A DNA stretch of 64,000 nucleotides, from positions 60,062 to 124,061 of the forward strand of contig CAZIKB010000003.1 in NCBI GenBank assembly GCA_964539665.1, in the 5' to 3' direction. Position numbers: made by a program. Position 1 is the first letter of the stretch; every line of letters begins with the position of its first letter. This DNA comes from an uncultured Cytophagia bacterium (GTDB taxonomy: Bacteria > Zhuqueibacterota > Zhuqueibacteria > Oceanimicrobiales > Oceanimicrobiaceae). Below, in pieces: positions 48,001 to 60,000 of the stretch.

Positions 48001-51000
48001 TGTTGCTCCCTTAATATTTTCCTCAGAAGTTAATATATCAGGCATTAAGCAAAAAATTATGAGAAGCTTTTGTTATACATTGTTTCATACTGTAACACAA
48101 AAAAATGTTGATCCGTTTTAAGACAATTATTTTTATGCCGATATTAATTTTGTAGTCGGTCTTTTTAAGTAAGTTCGTATTAATAAAGCACTAAATGTTT
48201 ATAATTTACATTGGTATAAATTTTGCTAAAGTATTGCGACTGACTTCAAAAATGTTCATTATACGTGATATTAAGACGTGAGGAAAATATATGTCGGAAC
48301 AGAACCGAAAAAGAGTAATTGGTAAGGCAATTACTTATAGAGGACTTGGCACATTAGTTACTATATCAGTAATATATATTTTCACTGGAAAATTGGCGCT
48401 TTCATTTGGTGTCGGACTTGTTGAGGTCGTTGCTAAAATGCTTTTTTATTACCTGCATGAACGACTTTGGGAGAAAATATCATGGGGTAAAGATAAACAT
48501 CCTCTTGCTGGAATCCCTGTTAAAAAGGAGCTTGAACCTGAAGACAAAGTATTGCTTGAAGAGAGATTAAAAGAGCTTGGATATTTATAAAAATCGAATT
48601 ATTGGGAGCAAATGATGAATCGAAAATACTCGTTAATTACTTTACTCATTTTATTGGTATTCTTAATTATCGATGCACAGCCTGCTTTTGCATATATCGG
48701 CCCCGGCGCCGGTTTTGCATTTTTAACTTCATTTGCAATGCTATTTGCCAGTTTCTTTATGGCTTTTTTTACATTGCTAACCTGGCCTTTCCGGGTTTTT
48801 TTACGGTTTTTCAAAAGAAGAAAAGCTTTAGCCAGAGCTAAAACAGATCGGGTTGTGATTCTGGGCCTTGACGGTCTTGACCCAACTATCACAGAACGCA
48901 TGCTACAGGAAGGTAAATTACCAAATTTGAAAAAACTTAAAGAGCAAGGTTCTTACAAACATTTACAGACCACTTATCCAGCTCTCTCGCCAGTTGCCTG
49001 GTCAGCCTTTGCAACTGGAGTTAATCCTGGTCGACATAACATTTTTGATTTTCTTTCACGCAATCGATTCAACTATTTACCCGAATTATCCTCTTCAAAA
49101 GTTGGGTCTCCAAATCGAAAAATATCCCTGGGAAAATTCGAAATCCCGCTTGGCAAACCGATTGTTCGATTATTACGTCGCAGCAAAAGCTTCTGGACAA
49201 TATTGGGAGAGAACGGTATTTTCAGTCATGTACTTCGTGTACCAATCACTTTCCCACCTGAAAAATTTAACGGAGCGTTACTTTCAGCGATGTGTACTCC
49301 GGACCTCTGGGGAACGCAAGGCACTTTTTCCTACTTCACGACTGATACAACTAATAAAAAATTTAAAGAGGGAGGAGAGACTGCAGTTGTGAAATGGGTA
49401 GGCGATAGAATTGAGGGATTTATTAAAGGCCCTGAGAACTCCATTACTAAAAAGCATGAGTCGATGAAGCTCCCTTTTGAAGTAAAGATTTTGAGTGATG
49501 ACGAAATAGAACTGATAATAGAAAAAAAGAAATACAACCTAAAAAAGAAAAAATACACCGATTGGATTGAATTGAAATTTAAAGCCGGAATGGGGATCAA
49601 AGTACATGGTATTGCACGATTTTACCTGCTTGAAACCAATCCAGTTTTTAGATTGTATATGACGCCCATCAATATCGATCCGGAAAAGCCAGCGCTGCCA
49701 ATTTCTTACCCTTATTTCTATTCCGTTTATCTTTCTAAGTTATTCGGGAAATTCGCGACATTGGGTTTAGCGGAAGATACCTGGGCTTTGAACGAGGGCG
49801 TTCTTGATGAGGAAGCTTTTTTAGAGCAGGCATATCTAATTCATGAAGAACGTGAAAAACAATTTTTTCATACTTTAAGCAAAACCAGAAAAGGTTTGTG
49901 TTCAGTGGTATTTGATGCCAGTGATCGAATTCAGCACATGTTTTTCCGAACGCTTGAAGATGACCATCCTGCCAACCGAGGCAAAGAAACTGAAAAATAT
50001 AAAAATGTTATTGCCGATATGTATGAGCAAATGGATGACCTCGTTGGTAGAACCATGGCTAAAATAAATAAAGATGAGGTTTTTATTGTGCTCTCTGATC
50101 ATGGTTTTAAATCATTCAGACGCGGTATAAACCTGAATTCCTGGTTAAAAGCTAATGGTTATCTAAAGCTGAAAGACGGTAGGGAAGAGAGTGGGGAATT
50201 TTTTCAGGGTGTTGATTGGGAAAATACAAAAGCCTATGCATTCGGACTGACGGGTATTTACATCAATGTTAAAGGCCGGGAAAAGAACGGCATTGTCGCA
50301 CCAGGTGAAGAATTAAAAACACTCAAAGATGAGTTGATTGCTAAACTTTCCGGGATGTTAGATCCTGAAACCGGGGAAGTTGCCATTATCGAGATGTTTG
50401 ATAATAGTGAAATTTACAAGGGACCTTATACTAACAATGGACCCGACTTGATTAGTGGCTACAATAGCGGCTATCGAATTTCATGGAATGGCGCAACCGG
50501 GAATGTCAATGAGCAAATTTTTGAAGACAACGTTAAAGCCTGGAGCGGCGATCATTGTGTTGACCCGAGGCTTGTCCCCGGGGTGATTTTTAGCAACCAA
50601 AAAATTATGGCCGCTAAACCAGGTTTGATGGATATAGCGCCAACAGTTCTTGAATTATTTGGAATAACTAAACCAGGCTATATGGAAGGCCAGGATATCT
50701 TAAGTAGTGAACCAGAAGAGACAGCAAAAGATGAAGATATTCCCACCATAGTGCCAACAGTAAAAAAAACGGAGGTGGCTTCGGTCAATGAATAAGATTA
50801 AAGTTGTATTTGGTATAATAGCTATCCTATTTTTAGTGTCATTGATTAGCTTATCTGTTTTCTGGGGATGCAAAAAAAGCAATGCAAGCGCAATTGAAAA
50901 AAAAGTGATTGTTATTGGCTTTGATGGTATGGATCCAAGACTTTTGTCAAAATATATGAGTGAGGATCGACTTCCAAATTTTACTAAATTAGCTGAAACG

Positions 51001-57000: not shown

Positions 57001-60000
57001 GTCCGCGGCCGCGAACCTGAAGGCGCGGTTGCACCTGAAGAGTATGAAACCATTCGGAATGAATTGATTCATAAGCTGGAAAATATAAAGGACGAAAAAG
57101 GCCAGCCATTAACTACCAGAGTTATAAAGCCAAATGAGGTTTATAAGGAAGTAAACAATATTCCTCCGGATTTAATGGTCTATTTTGGTGATTTGAATTG
57201 GCGGTCGGTTGGCAGTGTCGGATTAAATCGAATACACACTTTTGATAAAGAGCTGGGACCTGATGATGCTAACCATTCTCAGCACGGTATTTTTGTCATG
57301 CATGATCCACAAAATCCTGCAAATGGCAAGAGAATTCACGGCATGCAATTGGTTGATGTTGCGCCAACTATTTTAGATTTATTTGGTGACGAAATTCCAA
57401 ATGATATGATCGGTAAAGTTATCAGGAACAAATAAGGCGTTAGAGGAAACACGCTGAGGATATTTGCCACACACTTCCAGGGTGTGTGGCAAATCCAATT
57501 TTAAATTAAAATCAATTAATTAGTTGTAATGATATAAATTTTATGGAGGTTTCAATTTTATGAAGACATCTAAAAAAGCATGTACAATTTGGTTCACGGG
57601 TTTACCTTCCTCTGGAAAATCTACTTTGGCGGAGATGCTGGAAAAGGAGTTAAAAAACCGCGGAGAAAGGGTCGAAATTTTAGATGGCGATGTAGTCCGT
57701 ACGAATTTAAGCAAAGGCTTGACCTTTAGTAAGGAAGATCGGGACATCAATATCCGGAGAATAGGATTTGTTTGTCATTTGTTGACAAGAAATGGTGTGT
57801 TCGCAATTTCTGCAGCAATATCTCCTTATAGAAATATACGAGATGAAAACCGTGCACTCATAGGCAACTTTGTCGAGGTTTTTGTTGATTGTCCACTGGA
57901 TGAATGTATTAAAAGAGATGTAAAAGGTCTTTATAAAAAAGCATTGGCCGGCGAAATAAAGGAATTTACCGGCGTTTCTGATCCTTATGAAGAACCTCTC
58001 AAACCTGAAATTGTGATTGACGCCCACGGAGAAGAACCCAAAGATAGCCTTCAAAAAATACTGGCGAGATTAGTAGAATTAGGTTACTTATCCAATAACG
58101 GTCTTGATACATCTGACAAAGCATATTCTGATGAAGAAGAAGAGGTAGTGAGAAAGCGGCTGAGTGATCTGGGCTATATTTAATGTTAAATATTTTTAAG
58201 AAAAATAAGGGATCAAAAGTATTTGTTCTGTCTATCGACGGTGTTCCCTTTTCATTTATGCAGGAAAACATAGAAAAGGGTCATTTTCCTAACTTCAAAC
58301 GTTTTTTGAATATGGGTGATTTTAAAAGGATGAATTCAGTGCAACCGGTGATATCATCGGTTGCCTGGTCCTCTTTTATGACAGGCAAGAATCCGGCTAA
58401 GCATAATATTTATGGATTTGTGGATCAAATGCCGGGTTCAAATAATGTATATATTCCTACTTCGCTCAACATGACCAGTAAAACCATTTGGGATATCATG
58501 AGTGAGGCTGGGAAAAAAGTGTTTGTGATGAATGTTCCTGTAACCTATCCACCACGCGCGGTAAATGGAATTATGATTGGCTGTTTCCTTTGCACTCAAA
58601 TTGAGAAAATAGCTTCCCCGCCTGCTATTTCTGCTGAATTAAAAAATATGGGCTATAAGATTGATGCAGACGCCTGGATCGCCCGTGAAAATTTAGACAA
58701 ATTCCTGGAGGAAGTAAATACTACCCTGGAAAAGCGAACCGAGGCTATGTTTCATTTTTTGGCAAAGGAAGATTGGGATTATTTTCACACCCACATCATG
58801 GAAACAGACCGGATAAATCACTTTTTATGGGAGCACATGGAACTCGATGAGCCGAAATATGCTAAAGCTTTTTTCCAATTTTATAAAAGGTTGGATGATA
58901 TTTTAGGTGAAGTTGAACAAAAAATCGGCGAAGACGCGGAATTTATAGTTCTGTCTGATCACGGTTTTTGTACTATTAAGAAAGAAATCTATCTCAATAA
59001 TTATTTGGAAGAAGCCGGTATATTGAAATTTAATAACTCTCAGCCGGAAAGTATCGCGGACATGCATGAAGATTCCACGGCCTACAGCTTGATTCCAGGC
59101 AGGGTATTTGTGAATCTAAATGGGCGCGAGCCGAACGGTTCGATATCGCCGGGGAATTATGAAAAGACCCGGGAAAAACTCACTGAGACGCTTCTTAATT
59201 TAAAGGAAAAAGACACCGGCGAATTTATTATCAAGGAAGTTATCAGGCGCGAAAATATCTACGAAGGTCAAAATATTGGCTCCGCAGCGGACTTAATTGC
59301 TGTTCCACATGATGGTTATGACTTGAAAGGGAACGTGAATAAAGAAGTGTTTGGTGAAAAGGGGGCGCTGGTCGGAATGCATACATTCGAAGATTCACTT
59401 TTATTTGTTCGAAATAAATCTTTGTTAAAACAGAATAATCAATTTTGGATCGGAGATTTGGCTCCAACTATTTTAAATATGATGAATATACCCATCCCAA
59501 ACGATATGGATGGAGTGGCATTAGTTTGAGTAATCTTTGCAGGAAAAAATGACCCAGAAATCACAAATCAATGTTCTTCAGGTTGTAGAGGGACTCAATT
59601 TAGGCGGGGCTGAAATTAAGCTTTTGGAGCTCATCGCCAACATGGATCGCAGCAGATTTAGAACGGTTGTGTGTAGTCTTGGAATGGGTGAAAGAATTAA
59701 AGAAAAAGTAACAGAATTAGATGTTAAATTTGTTAGTCTCGCGAGGAAAAGACGATTTGATCCAATGTTGATATGGAAAGTGGCCAAATTGATTCGTCAG
59801 GAAAATATTGATGTCGTGATGACTACGCTTTTTTATGCTGATGTTGTTGGCGCTTTTGCCCGGCTCTTCAGCCCGACTAAAGCTGTATTCTCCTGGGAAA
59901 CCATATCTGCTCCGGAATGGCTGCTAAAACACAGGCTTTTTGCTTATCGCTTTGCCATGCGATATTGCGATAATATCATTTCAGTTTCACAAGCAACGGC

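Follow-up and report, generated by a model that had tools for sequence, protein, structure and literature searches.

PAPS-synthesis genes accompanied by alkaline phosphatase-superfamily proteins suggest a candidate sulfation system in a bacterial glycan cluster

A 64,000-nucleotide stretch of contig CAZIKB010000003.1 from an uncultured Cytophagia bacterium (hereafter the window, in which genes are named by the position where they begin) carries the genes for synthesis of 3'-phosphoadenosine-5'-phosphosulfate (PAPS) among seven genes of the alkaline phosphatase (AP) superfamily. The reading that we favor, although we hold it tentatively and at somewhat less than even probability, is that this region forms the sulfation branch within a large heteropolysaccharide pathway of the Wzx/Wzy type and represents a widespread, undescribed "AP-superfamily sulfation system", in which PF00884 proteins would act as sulfotransferases, PF01663 proteins would hydrolyze inorganic pyrophosphate (PPi) and 3'-phosphoadenosine-5'-phosphate (PAP), and a carboxy-terminal tail would serve as the assembly signal. 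The evidence comes from a gene fusion and gene neighborhoods that recur across many phyla, from the distribution of the tail, and from the apparent lack of a canonical sulfotransferase in the window.

PAPS-synthesis genes and their AP-superfamily neighbors

An earlier note on this DNA had described PAPS-synthesis genes lying among four PF01663-type and three PF00884-type proteins, and Pfam scans recover every one of these genes at the position it gave; the span that it flagged, 48291-59529, does contain PAPS and AP-superfamily genes, and the gene at 48291 itself encodes a DUF2061 membrane protein. Sulfate adenylyltransferase (Sat) forms the amino-terminal part of a fusion protein, 54799-57435, in which Pfam finds PUA_2, ATP-sulfurylase (E 1e-97) and PF01663 (E 3e-48) domains, and which scores 584 bits against the NCBIfam sulfate adenylyltransferase model, passing its cut-off of 387. 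The adenosine 5'-phosphosulfate (APS) kinase CysC likewise exceeds its cut-off (Table 1), and the catalytic motifs of both enzymes, GRDHAG in Sat and GLPSSGKST in CysC, are legible in the translations. The NCBIfam scores and the motif reading both uphold the earlier statement that these enzymes are intact, and Sat and CysC are thus predicted to be able to make PAPS. The stop codon of CysC overlaps the start codon of the PF01663 gene 58183 (TAATG). Among the open reading frames (ORFs) of the window that were scanned, there was neither a CysQ-type (Inositol_P) gene nor one of the DHH family.

A canonical sulfotransferase was likewise sought in the window and not found. No Sulfotransfer family gave a Pfam match among ORFs of at least 100 amino acids (those not nested in a longer ORF) or among gap ORFs; a regular-expression search for the phosphosulfate-binding (PSB) loop motif (P-K/R-x-G-T/S-T/S) retrieved nothing from the six frames; and tblastn with the Sulfotransfer_3 protein of comparison locus L092 as query gave no match at E<=10. 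(The labels L001-L172 denote comparison loci: 83 loci, mostly from a genome scan, 80 metagenome loci, and the haloarchaeal loci L170-L172.) Because the same methods detected canonical sulfotransferases in other loci, with those of L092, L095, L145 and L153 matching Pfam at E 1e-10 to 1e-32 as positive controls, the absence in the window is meaningful, and the earlier claim that the 64 kb encode no Sulfotransfer-type gene holds. None was found either in the syntenic contig L001, which belongs to candidate division KSB1, or within 10 kb in L081 and L083-L087. The product of 53039, considered as a hidden sulfotransferase, was ruled out as a three-transmembrane (TM) protein matching no family.

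Canonical sulfotransferases do occur beside related genes in other loci. In L092, a Sulfotransfer_3 gene (E 5e-31) lies directly upstream of a 65%-identical orthologue of 58183, and in L093 the gene order is CysC, sulfotransferase, 58183 orthologue; the 58183 orthologues that adjoin canonical sulfotransferases in these two loci are 65-67% identical to 58183. One or two canonical sulfotransferases lie within a few kb of the module in L094, L095, L097-L099, L145 and L153. These assignments are Pfam-confirmed in L092, L095, L145 and L153, and rest on the PSB-loop motif alone in L094 and L097-L099.

A neighborhood survey of Sat-PF01663 co-occurrence, which the earlier note had proposed, reveals that the association extends far beyond the window. 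The fusion is found at full length in at least 120 protein clusters (90% identity), with 60-78% identity. Among metagenome loci with enough sequence, 38 of 61 have CysC no more than 1.2 kb upstream of their 58183 orthologue; where CysC is present and at least 2.8 kb of upstream sequence is available, a fused-type PF01663 domain is found in 20 of 26, and most Sat matches in the metagenome loci are contiguous with a match of that type. The module occurs in KSB1, TA06, Zixibacteria, Chloroflexota, Nitrospinota, Planctomycetota, Dadabacteria, Syntrophobacterales and Calditrichota, and the association with Sat/CysC persists, in at least 10 phyla, despite rearranged gene order, fusion and fission. 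The order Sat-AP, CysC, 58183 is seen in L003-L005 and many more loci, and the same order with an unfused Sat in L006, L127, L128 and L140; L087, from a relative of a candidate division Zixibacteria protein, reads Sat, GT4, AP, AP, CysC, AP; in L065 (Nitrospinota), the fused-type domain is unfused and adjoins a divergently transcribed CysC-Sat pair; and L086, from a Syntrophobacterales genome, is a compact array of PF01663, DUF2061, CysC and 58183-type PF01663 that contains neither Sat nor glycan genes. The fusion, the translational coupling through TAATG and the recurrent adjacency in many phyla together support a functional tie between the AP-superfamily genes and PAPS synthesis, as judged from gene organization.

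Table 1. Features of the PAPS/AP-superfamily region, with coordinates in the window
Feature	Coordinates	Strand	Remarks
Soluble PF00884 protein	37249..38628	+	Pfam E 3.5e-54; Thr-type TLPTH; tail ..ERLKALGYLG; no TM segment
Membrane PF00884 protein	43768..45645	+	~190-aa N-terminal multi-TM domain; Thr-type TWPSL; tail ..KRLRALGYVK
Membrane PF00884 protein	45855..47692	+	5 TM; Thr-type TKPST; tail ..EKLKSLGYIK past frameshift
DUF2061 small membrane protein	48291..48590	+	Pfam E 1.8e-18; tail ..ERLKELGYL
PF01663 paralogue, 727 aa	48612..50795	+	E 4e-28; Ser nucleophile LSPVAWS; ~200-aa insertion; no tail
PF01663 paralogue, 664 aa	50788..52782	+	E 9e-41; one N-terminal TM or signal segment; Ser nucleophile QSPVAWS; no tail
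Small protein, 63 aa	52796..52990	+	Ribbon-helix-helix-like (KIKLEKELYDRIKKFSEIAGYSSVEEFVTHVLEKEL); tail ..KRLQGLGYLS
Membrane protein, 276 aa, 3 TM	53039..53869	+	No family match; conserved partner of 48612/50788 pair
SAM-dependent methyltransferase	53939..54775	+	Pfam; syntenic with Sat gene in L001, L066
Sat-PF01663 fusion	54799..57435	+	Sat aa 1-388, Lys/Pro/Ala-rich linker, PF01663 aa 421-878
APS kinase CysC	57560..58183	+	Pfam E 1e-61; NCBIfam 268 bits vs cut-off 244
PF01663 protein, 448 aa	58183..59529	+	E 1.5e-43; Ser58 nucleophile; bimetal ligands intact; no tail
GT4 glycosyltransferase	59537..60682	+	Directly 3' of 58183; synteny kept in L001, L066
(aa, amino acids; SAM, S-adenosylmethionine; GT, glycosyltransferase)

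The position of CysC between two PF01663 genes is occupied in some loci by short P-loop proteins of about 160-170 amino acids (L094, 2398-2880; L095, 7433-7903; L097, 2050-2571; L098, 7395-7907). Their match to the APS-kinase model is confined to its first 65 positions, yet they keep the carboxy-terminal tail described below, and they may be degenerate or adaptor forms of CysC. The same loci also contain two canonical sulfotransferases and a true CxPxR sulfatase.

Threonine-type PF00884 proteins and a shared carboxy-terminal tail

The PF00884 proteins 37249, 43768 and 45855 match their Pfam family at E 3e-47 to 3.5e-54, and 37249 matches sulfatases of the Protein Data Bank (PDB) at E 5e-30, with 5G2T/5G2U and 6HHM among its matches. 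Examination of the nucleophile position indicates that Thr54 of 37249 aligns to the formylglycine of the sulfatases 4UPI and 7P24, and that the formylglycine signature, written as (C/S)xPxR or (C/S)-x-(P/A)-x-R, is absent from all three proteins. With threonine at this position and the signature missing, 37249, 43768 and 45855 are not sulfatases and should not be filed as such. Both 43768 and 45855 combine four to five amino-terminal hydrophobic segments with threonine at the nucleophile position, which is the architecture of LtaS and EptA; the NCBIfam models for EptA, LtaS and CptA give at best 42 bits against a cut-off of 500, arylsulfatase models give 134-165 bits, and no NCBIfam model reaches its cut-off for any AP-superfamily protein of the window. 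The frame of 45855 breaks at a G5 run near 47495-47513, so that its true end lies at about 47692 instead of 47513: the out-of-frame continuation (47483-47692) bears the sulfatase motif ELYNLEIDPGE and the tail, and the orthologue in L066, a Calditrichaceae metagenome-assembled genome (MAG), is a single ORF with tail. The frameshift reflects either an assembly error or a pseudogene.

The tail itself follows the extended consensus [YF]-[ST]-x-EEE-x2-h-x2-[RK]-L-x2-LGY-[ILV]-stop, reads as a single capped amphipathic helix, and is covered by no Pfam match. Within the window it is borne by 37249, 43768, the out-of-frame end of 45855, the DUF2061 protein, the small ORF 52796 and CysC, whose 30-residue carboxy-terminal extension contains the motif twice (38600-38628, 45615-45645, 47660-47692, 48560-48590, 52960-52990, 58079-58110 and 58150-58183); Sat and all four PF01663 proteins lack it. 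Over all loci, 148 ORFs end in the tail, against about 21 expected. Every PF01663-associated CysC bears it, and CysC proteins of the Bacillus type or from plasmids match only to about residue 177-188. Threonine-type PF00884 copies carry the tail in 10 of 11 cases (counting 45855 across its frameshift; the eleventh ends in a degenerate LKALDYIQ), whereas none of the eight CxPxR-type copies, the true sulfatases, does so. A degenerate tail is also present on the canonical sulfotransferases of L092 and L093. That CysC and the threonine-type PF00884 proteins have the tail in common is the strongest in-silico argument that these PF00884 proteins use the CysC product: its presence on both, and its absence from all eight true sulfatases, would link them functionally, and the tail probably identifies the members of one system, namely the enzyme that activates sulfate and the probable users of that sulfate.

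Two small tail-bearing proteins recur with the enzymes. A DUF2061 gene is found between a PF01663 gene and CysC also in L086, L061, L089, L102 and L161. The 52796 protein is a putative dedicated regulator, its ribbon-helix-helix (RHH) fold being read from the sequence with no significant Pfam match, and its tail could link this putative regulator to the enzymes. Elsewhere, small RHH-like (CopG-like) proteins of about 60-100 amino acids that bear the tail adjoin PF01663 or Sat genes in bacteria, Thermoprotei and Thermoplasmata; RHH-like tail-bearing ORFs lie in L001 (3073-3291), L066 (7971-8168), L073 (630-1180), L075 (4897-5199), L078 (9477-9988) and L086 (6886-7308). In the Thermoprotei MAGs L073 (2581-8605) and L078 (11446-17536), two tail-bearing RHH-like ORFs precede a homologue of the fused-type PF01663 domain (43% identity), which is followed by two proteins of about 900-1100 amino acids; the first of these has no Pfam match in either locus.

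The tail extends to haloarchaea. Among 72,556 plasmid records, the closest matches of 37249 are haloarchaeal "sulfatases" that share both the threonine and the tail, and "sulfatases" of Haladaptatus and Haloferax combine the two. On the Halopiger xanaduensis plasmid pHALXA01 (L170, 1-11341), PF00884, PF01663 and PAPS_reduct-family proteins bear the tail and are accompanied by a PHO4/PiT transporter and GT4 genes; the 58183-like gene of this locus lacks the tail. In Bacillus subtilis, a PiT-family protein acts as a sulfate permease. In L170 and in L171 (Natronorubrum bangense plasmid, 1526-11575), GT4 and flippase genes are interleaved with tail-bearing "sulfatase" and "alkaline phosphatase family" genes.

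A genetic precedent for such proteins comes from Halobacterium salinarum. There, gene deletions together with expression in a heterologous host showed that the membrane-bound Agl30 (VNG1056C) and the soluble Agl31 (VNG1057C), both annotated as "sulfatase" and both of the AP superfamily, are N-glycan sulfotransferases (Zaretsky et al., mBio 2025, PMC11980604). By analogy, 37249 is the best candidate for a cytoplasmic, Agl31-like sulfotransferase, and 43768 is a candidate for a membrane, Agl30-like sulfotransferase, with an LtaS/EptA-like phosphotransferase as the alternative for the latter.

PF01663 companions and competing explanations

The PF01663 proteins 48612, 50788, 58183 and the fused domain are true paralogues, 25-41% identical, that score 99-165 bits against a Pfam gathering cut-off of 23. 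An AlphaFold2 (AF2) model of 58183 (pLDDT 90.3, pTM 0.90) has 1EI6 (PhnA) and 4GTW (ENPP1) as its top Foldseek matches, with probability 1.00 and E 1e-13 to 1e-14, at 13-17% identity and a TM-score of about 0.6; phmmer of 58183 against the PDB returned no relative. Profile alignment places Ser58 on the nucleophile threonine of PhnA, and the metal ligands D19, D209/H213, D259/H260 and H400 are invariant in 34 orthologues. Equivalent nucleophile and ligand motifs in 48612, 50788 and the fused domain, which has a threonine nucleophile (ITVPAWS), were read by eye from unaligned translations. The structure prediction that the earlier note had recommended returned an AP fold, and the alignments a serine nucleophile and bimetal ligands, in an arrangement of the phosphoryl-transfer type; the 58183-type family is predicted to be a bimetal Ser/Thr enzyme of the NPP/PhnA clade with an intact active site, and searches by phmmer, against NCBIfam and in the literature brought up no close relative that has been characterized. 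Single-domain orthologues of 58183, at 50% identity or more, make up no fewer than 120 clusters, named merely "alkaline phosphatase family protein"; the JGI label of orthologues is "AlkP superfamily phosphohydrolase/phosphomutase", a wording that we take to be that of COG3379 rather than COG1524.

Inspection for hydrophobic segments revealed none in 37249, 58183 or the fusion, consistent with the cytoplasmic location that had been proposed earlier for the first two. The 48612 protein is anchored by a two-helix amino-terminal hairpin, which probably leaves its catalytic domain in the cytoplasm as well; 50788 overlaps 48612 by 8 nucleotides. The block formed by 48612, 50788, the small tail-bearing ORF and 53039 is complete in L001, L066 and L008 and partial in L090, L091 and L162, and the membrane proteins 48612, 50788 and 53039 may include further sulfotransferases for lipid-linked intermediates.

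In loci where CysC shares no more than 66% identity with the window copy, median identity is 58.8% for the fused-type domain, 56.8% for Sat, 53.0% for CysC and 48.5% for 58183; it is 25-28% for PF00884 neighbors. Because their conservation matches that of Sat and CysC, the fused domain and 58183 look like core enzymes of the pathway rather than acceptor-specific transferases. In Natrinema thermotolerans (L172, 9050-11344), a 58183-like gene (34% identity over the full length) directly follows an inorganic diphosphatase in housekeeping surroundings; this neighbor, the 1:1 conservation and the glycan-free locus L086 together argue for a conserved small-molecule substrate. Other loci hold extra PF01663 paralogues of about 560 amino acids that do bear the tail. 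A short-chain dehydrogenase/reductase (SDR) found beside 58183 orthologues without CysC was considered as a UDP-sulfoquinovose synthase and rejected, since it is a relative of generic nucleoside-diphosphate (NDP)-sugar dehydratases and epimerases.

In the model that we favor, sulfuryl transfer to the glycan would be carried out by AP-superfamily enzymes, most likely the threonine-type PF00884 proteins 37249 (soluble), 43768 and 45855 (membrane). The Sat-fused PF01663 domain and 58183 would be tail-less core enzymes that accompany Sat and CysC whatever the type of sulfotransferase, and would most probably hydrolyze inhibitory by-products, PPi beside Sat and PAP beside CysC; removal of these products would drive PAPS synthesis and use forward, replacing the absent CysQ. 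The tail probably gathers CysC, the candidate sulfotransferases, DUF2061 and the RHH-like regulator into a single complex, which may be associated with the membrane, or ties them to a common partner. PPi or PAP hydrolysis was among the readings offered in the earlier note, and it is the most economical one for the fused domain and 58183, although the assignment was reached by elimination.

Several observations weigh against this model. A pure pyrophosphatase role for the fused-type domain was rejected, since several loci pair the same orthologue with CysC but have no Sat. At the Halopiger locus, a 58183-like gene is present and no CysC is annotated, which weakens a strict PAP-phosphatase role, and about 19 of the 61 58183 orthologues lack CysC and lie in glycan contexts beside an SDR dehydratase, GT2 or Wzy. 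The Calditrichaceae locus L066 (1-15261) has the same gene order as window positions 45855-63401, but its Sat is unfused and its 58183 orthologue is missing; as the cluster is otherwise identical, both core PF01663 units are dispensable there. The LtaS/EptA topology of 43768 and 45855 predicts an extracytoplasmic catalytic domain, which would have no access to PAPS. Enzymes of the AP superfamily that use serine or threonine are, moreover, poor catalysts of sulfuryl transfer. The archaeal precedent itself leaves the sulfate donor and mechanism unaddressed (PMC11980604).

A different assignment, which we regard as possible but doubtful, would make the PF01663 paralogues (the fused domain, 58183 and/or 48612 and 50788) a new class of sulfotransferase that takes sulfate from APS (the fused domain) or PAPS (58183) and transfers it, through a sulfo-Ser/Thr intermediate or in line, to lipid-linked or soluble glycan intermediates. 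The lack of canonical sulfotransferases in the window and within 10 kb in the six loci named above accords with such a role, as does L083, where a Sat-PF01663 and CysC pair has no other AP-superfamily gene nearby. Up to four extra tail-bearing paralogues, about 30% identical, stand in tandem beside Sat/CysC (for example in L005/L137 and L121) in a manner that resembles diversification of acceptor specificity, and tail-bearing PF01663 proteins occur in haloarchaeal glycan clusters. Fusion would allow an APS-using transferase to pull the unfavorable sulfurylase equilibrium, and PF01663 includes glycan-acting group transferases such as the glycosylphosphatidylinositol (GPI) ethanolamine-phosphate transferases. 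However, the tail found on CysC and on the remaining candidate transferases is missing from the four PF01663 proteins of the window, their active site is of the phosphoryl-transfer type, and the fused type and 58183 are conserved as 1:1 orthologues to the same degree as Sat and CysC, which would be unusual for acceptor-specific enzymes. They also co-occur with canonical sulfotransferases, in L093 as CysC, sulfotransferase and 58183, and are found in glycan-free contexts (L086, L172). The earlier suggestion of sulfuryl transfer by an AP-superfamily enzyme is hence weakened for PF01663, by the canonical sulfotransferases beside its orthologues and by core conservation, and the three PF00884 proteins are stronger sulfotransferase candidates than the four PF01663 proteins.

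A more conventional account, in our estimate decidedly improbable, would place a canonical sulfotransferase elsewhere in the genome and treat the AP-superfamily genes as phospho-enzymes of glycan decoration: 43768 and 45855 would be LtaS/EptA/OpgB-like enzymes that attach phosphoglycerol or phosphoethanolamine on the outer side of the membrane, the PF01663 proteins, as phosphodiesterases or nucleotide pyrophosphatases, would trim phospho-substituents or by-products of nucleotides, and proximity to Sat/CysC would reflect a shared operon rather than shared chemistry. The multi-TM domains and threonine nucleophiles of 43768 and 45855 are typical of LtaS and EptA, to whose models both give weak matches; canonical sulfotransferases occur in some sister loci; and the search for one covered the 64-kb window. 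Against this stand the EptA/LtaS scores, which fall far under cut-off and are much weaker than those of the sulfatase models, and 37249, which is soluble and cytoplasmic, unlike the LtaS/EptA enzymes. The Sat/CysC association, moreover, spans at least 10 phyla, including loci without glycan genes, the tail unites CysC with the threonine-type PF00884 proteins and is never found on true sulfatases, and a canonical sulfotransferase is absent both from L001 and from the 48 kb upstream and 4.5 kb downstream of Sat.

We consider unlikely, too, a broader scheme in which the PF01663 proteins (the fused domain, 58183, the pair 48612/50788 and the tail-bearing extra paralogues) would be one more, so far overlooked, class of sulfuryl-transfer enzymes and, with the threonine-type sulfatase-like proteins, would form a bacterial and archaeal sulfation machine built by the tail and perhaps regulated through the RHH-like protein; in its extreme version, sulfate from PAPS may be relayed by a protein- or membrane-bound carrier to extracytoplasmic enzymes. 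To a specific form of relay, in which the core PF01663 enzymes would sulfate the tyrosine of the ..LGY tail (or another carrier) from PAPS and the threonine-type PF00884 proteins would pass the aryl-sulfate to glycans, possibly on the outer side of the membrane, we give hardly any credence. The tail tyrosine is invariant in genuine tails: a search that accepted tyrosine or phenylalanine gave phenylalanine in two evidently spurious ORFs only, and a later search demanded tyrosine. The PF00884 proteins are related to enzymes that cleave aryl-sulfates, the predicted topology of 43768 and 45855 turns them toward the exterior, where there is no PAPS, and producer, candidate users and regulator all bear the tail. 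Yet such a relay is a speculative reading; the tail is more simply explained as a docking or oligomerization helix with an N-cap, CysC and 37249 are both cytoplasmic, which makes a common cytoplasmic function more parsimonious, and we know of no sulfate relay of this kind.

Cluster setting, implications and comparison with known systems

The window has a GC content of about 0.38, is coded almost wholly on the + strand, and amounts to one very large glycan-biosynthesis cluster. Pfam scans identify numerous glycosyltransferases of families GT2 and GT4, a pair of PMT_2-type GT-C enzymes, two Wzx flippases and one Wzy polymerase. Further genes encode NDP-sugar dehydratases and epimerases, methyl- and acetyltransferases, carbamoyl-phosphate synthase along with two carbamoyltransferases, an amidotransferase resembling asparagine synthase, GH39 and a GHL15/Golvesin protein. 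The GT4 gene at 59537 adjoins the module and so ties it to glycan assembly. In the nearest genome, a candidate division KSB1 MAG, synteny is identical and the fusion is 77% identical. Genes for the small and large chains of carbamoyl-phosphate synthase, a carbamoyltransferase, an SxtJ-like protein and a DUF5989 protein follow one another at 21552-28227, and the second carbamoyltransferase lies at 33947-35746, which suggests that the glycan is O-carbamoylated from a dedicated carbamoyl-phosphate supply. Despite the tight packing, 29629-30785 (about 1.1 kb) and 47764-48290 (about 0.5 kb) hold no convincing ORF and no Rfam match, an Rfam scan of the whole window having returned none; these stretches may be promoters or operon boundaries.

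Sulfated glycans influence biofilms, interactions with hosts, and the sedimentary cycles of carbon and sulfur, and sulfation in prokaryotes has been recognized almost solely through P-loop sulfotransferases. If the proposed system is real, many genes named "sulfatase" or "alkaline phosphatase family protein" in KSB1, Zixibacteria, Chloroflexota, Planctomycetota, sulfate reducers and haloarchaea would encode sulfation enzymes or their helpers, and genome-based counts both of sulfatases, which are read as degradation, and of sulfation capacity would be wrong. A PF01663-type PAP phosphatase or a Sat-tethered pyrophosphatase would in that case be a new non-orthologous enzyme displacement in sulfur metabolism. 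Agl30 and Agl31 would gain a bacterial counterpart recognizable by two markers, threonine in place of formylglycine and the ..RLxxLGY tail, together with candidate partners (two conserved PF01663 enzymes, DUF2061 and a small regulator) through which donor and mechanism become testable.

The earlier note had held that any role considered would be a new function for the family. This does not stand for the PF00884-like branch, for which Agl30 and Agl31 provide a precedent; that precedent does not extend to PF01663. Glycan sulfation fed by PAPS is thus of a known kind, and AP-superfamily sulfotransferases have archaeal antecedents; the bacterial counterpart, the Sat-PF01663 fusion, the two PF01663 companions of CysC, the DUF2061 and RHH-like parts, and the tail appear to be undescribed in the searchable literature. 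Searches of that literature returned nothing relevant on the AP superfamily combined with sulfotransferases and PAPS, on Sat fusions, on COG3379 or on DUF2061, and the follow-up papers to Agl30/Agl31 that it contains come from the same laboratory only.

Among known systems, LtaS, EptA and OpgB resemble 43768 and 45855 in their threonine nucleophile and amino-terminal multi-TM domain; they differ in that 37249 is soluble and all three PF00884 proteins bear a CysC-type tail (45855 across its frameshift). The NPP/PhnA clade shares with 58183 its fold, nucleophile position and bimetal ligands, but the PF01663 genes of the window are fused or coupled to Sat/CysC, and identity to PhnA and ENPP1 is as low as given above. 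Fusions of Sat to APS kinase exist, as do, in some eukaryotes, fusions of Sat, APS kinase and pyrophosphatase; there, too, a second catalytic domain is tethered to Sat and could pull the unfavorable sulfurylase equilibrium, whereas the partner in the window is a PF01663 domain of the AP superfamily, undescribed in the searchable literature.

The capsular polysaccharide (CPS) cluster of Cobetia marina, which contains cysNC, cysD, cysQ, a sulfate permease and P-loop sulfotransferases (PMC11766843), likewise places PAPS-synthesis genes inside a glycan cluster, where they feed sulfation. In comparison, the window has Sat/CysC in place of CysDN/CysC and lacks CysQ, a sulfate permease and any Sulfotransfer-family gene, having instead seven AP-superfamily genes, DUF2061 and the tail. 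Agl7 of Haloferax volcanii (HVO_2046), considered as a possible precedent, is required for sulfation of dolichol phosphate (DolP)-linked hexose. The closest likeness is to Agl30 and Agl31: in both systems, a membrane and a soluble protein with an AP-like core lie in a glycan-assembly cluster without a canonical sulfotransferase, and 37249 matches 5G2T/5G2U and 6HHM, the structures named as closest to Agl30/Agl31 (PMC11980604). This likeness was drawn from published description and from haloarchaeal proxies (29-34% identity, with threonine and tail). The account of Agl30/Agl31 describes neither a tail, PF01663 partners nor a Sat fusion (PMC11980604), and the two systems differ in their setting, the window being bacterial with a Wzx/Wzy polysaccharide and theirs archaeal with a DolP-linked N-glycan.

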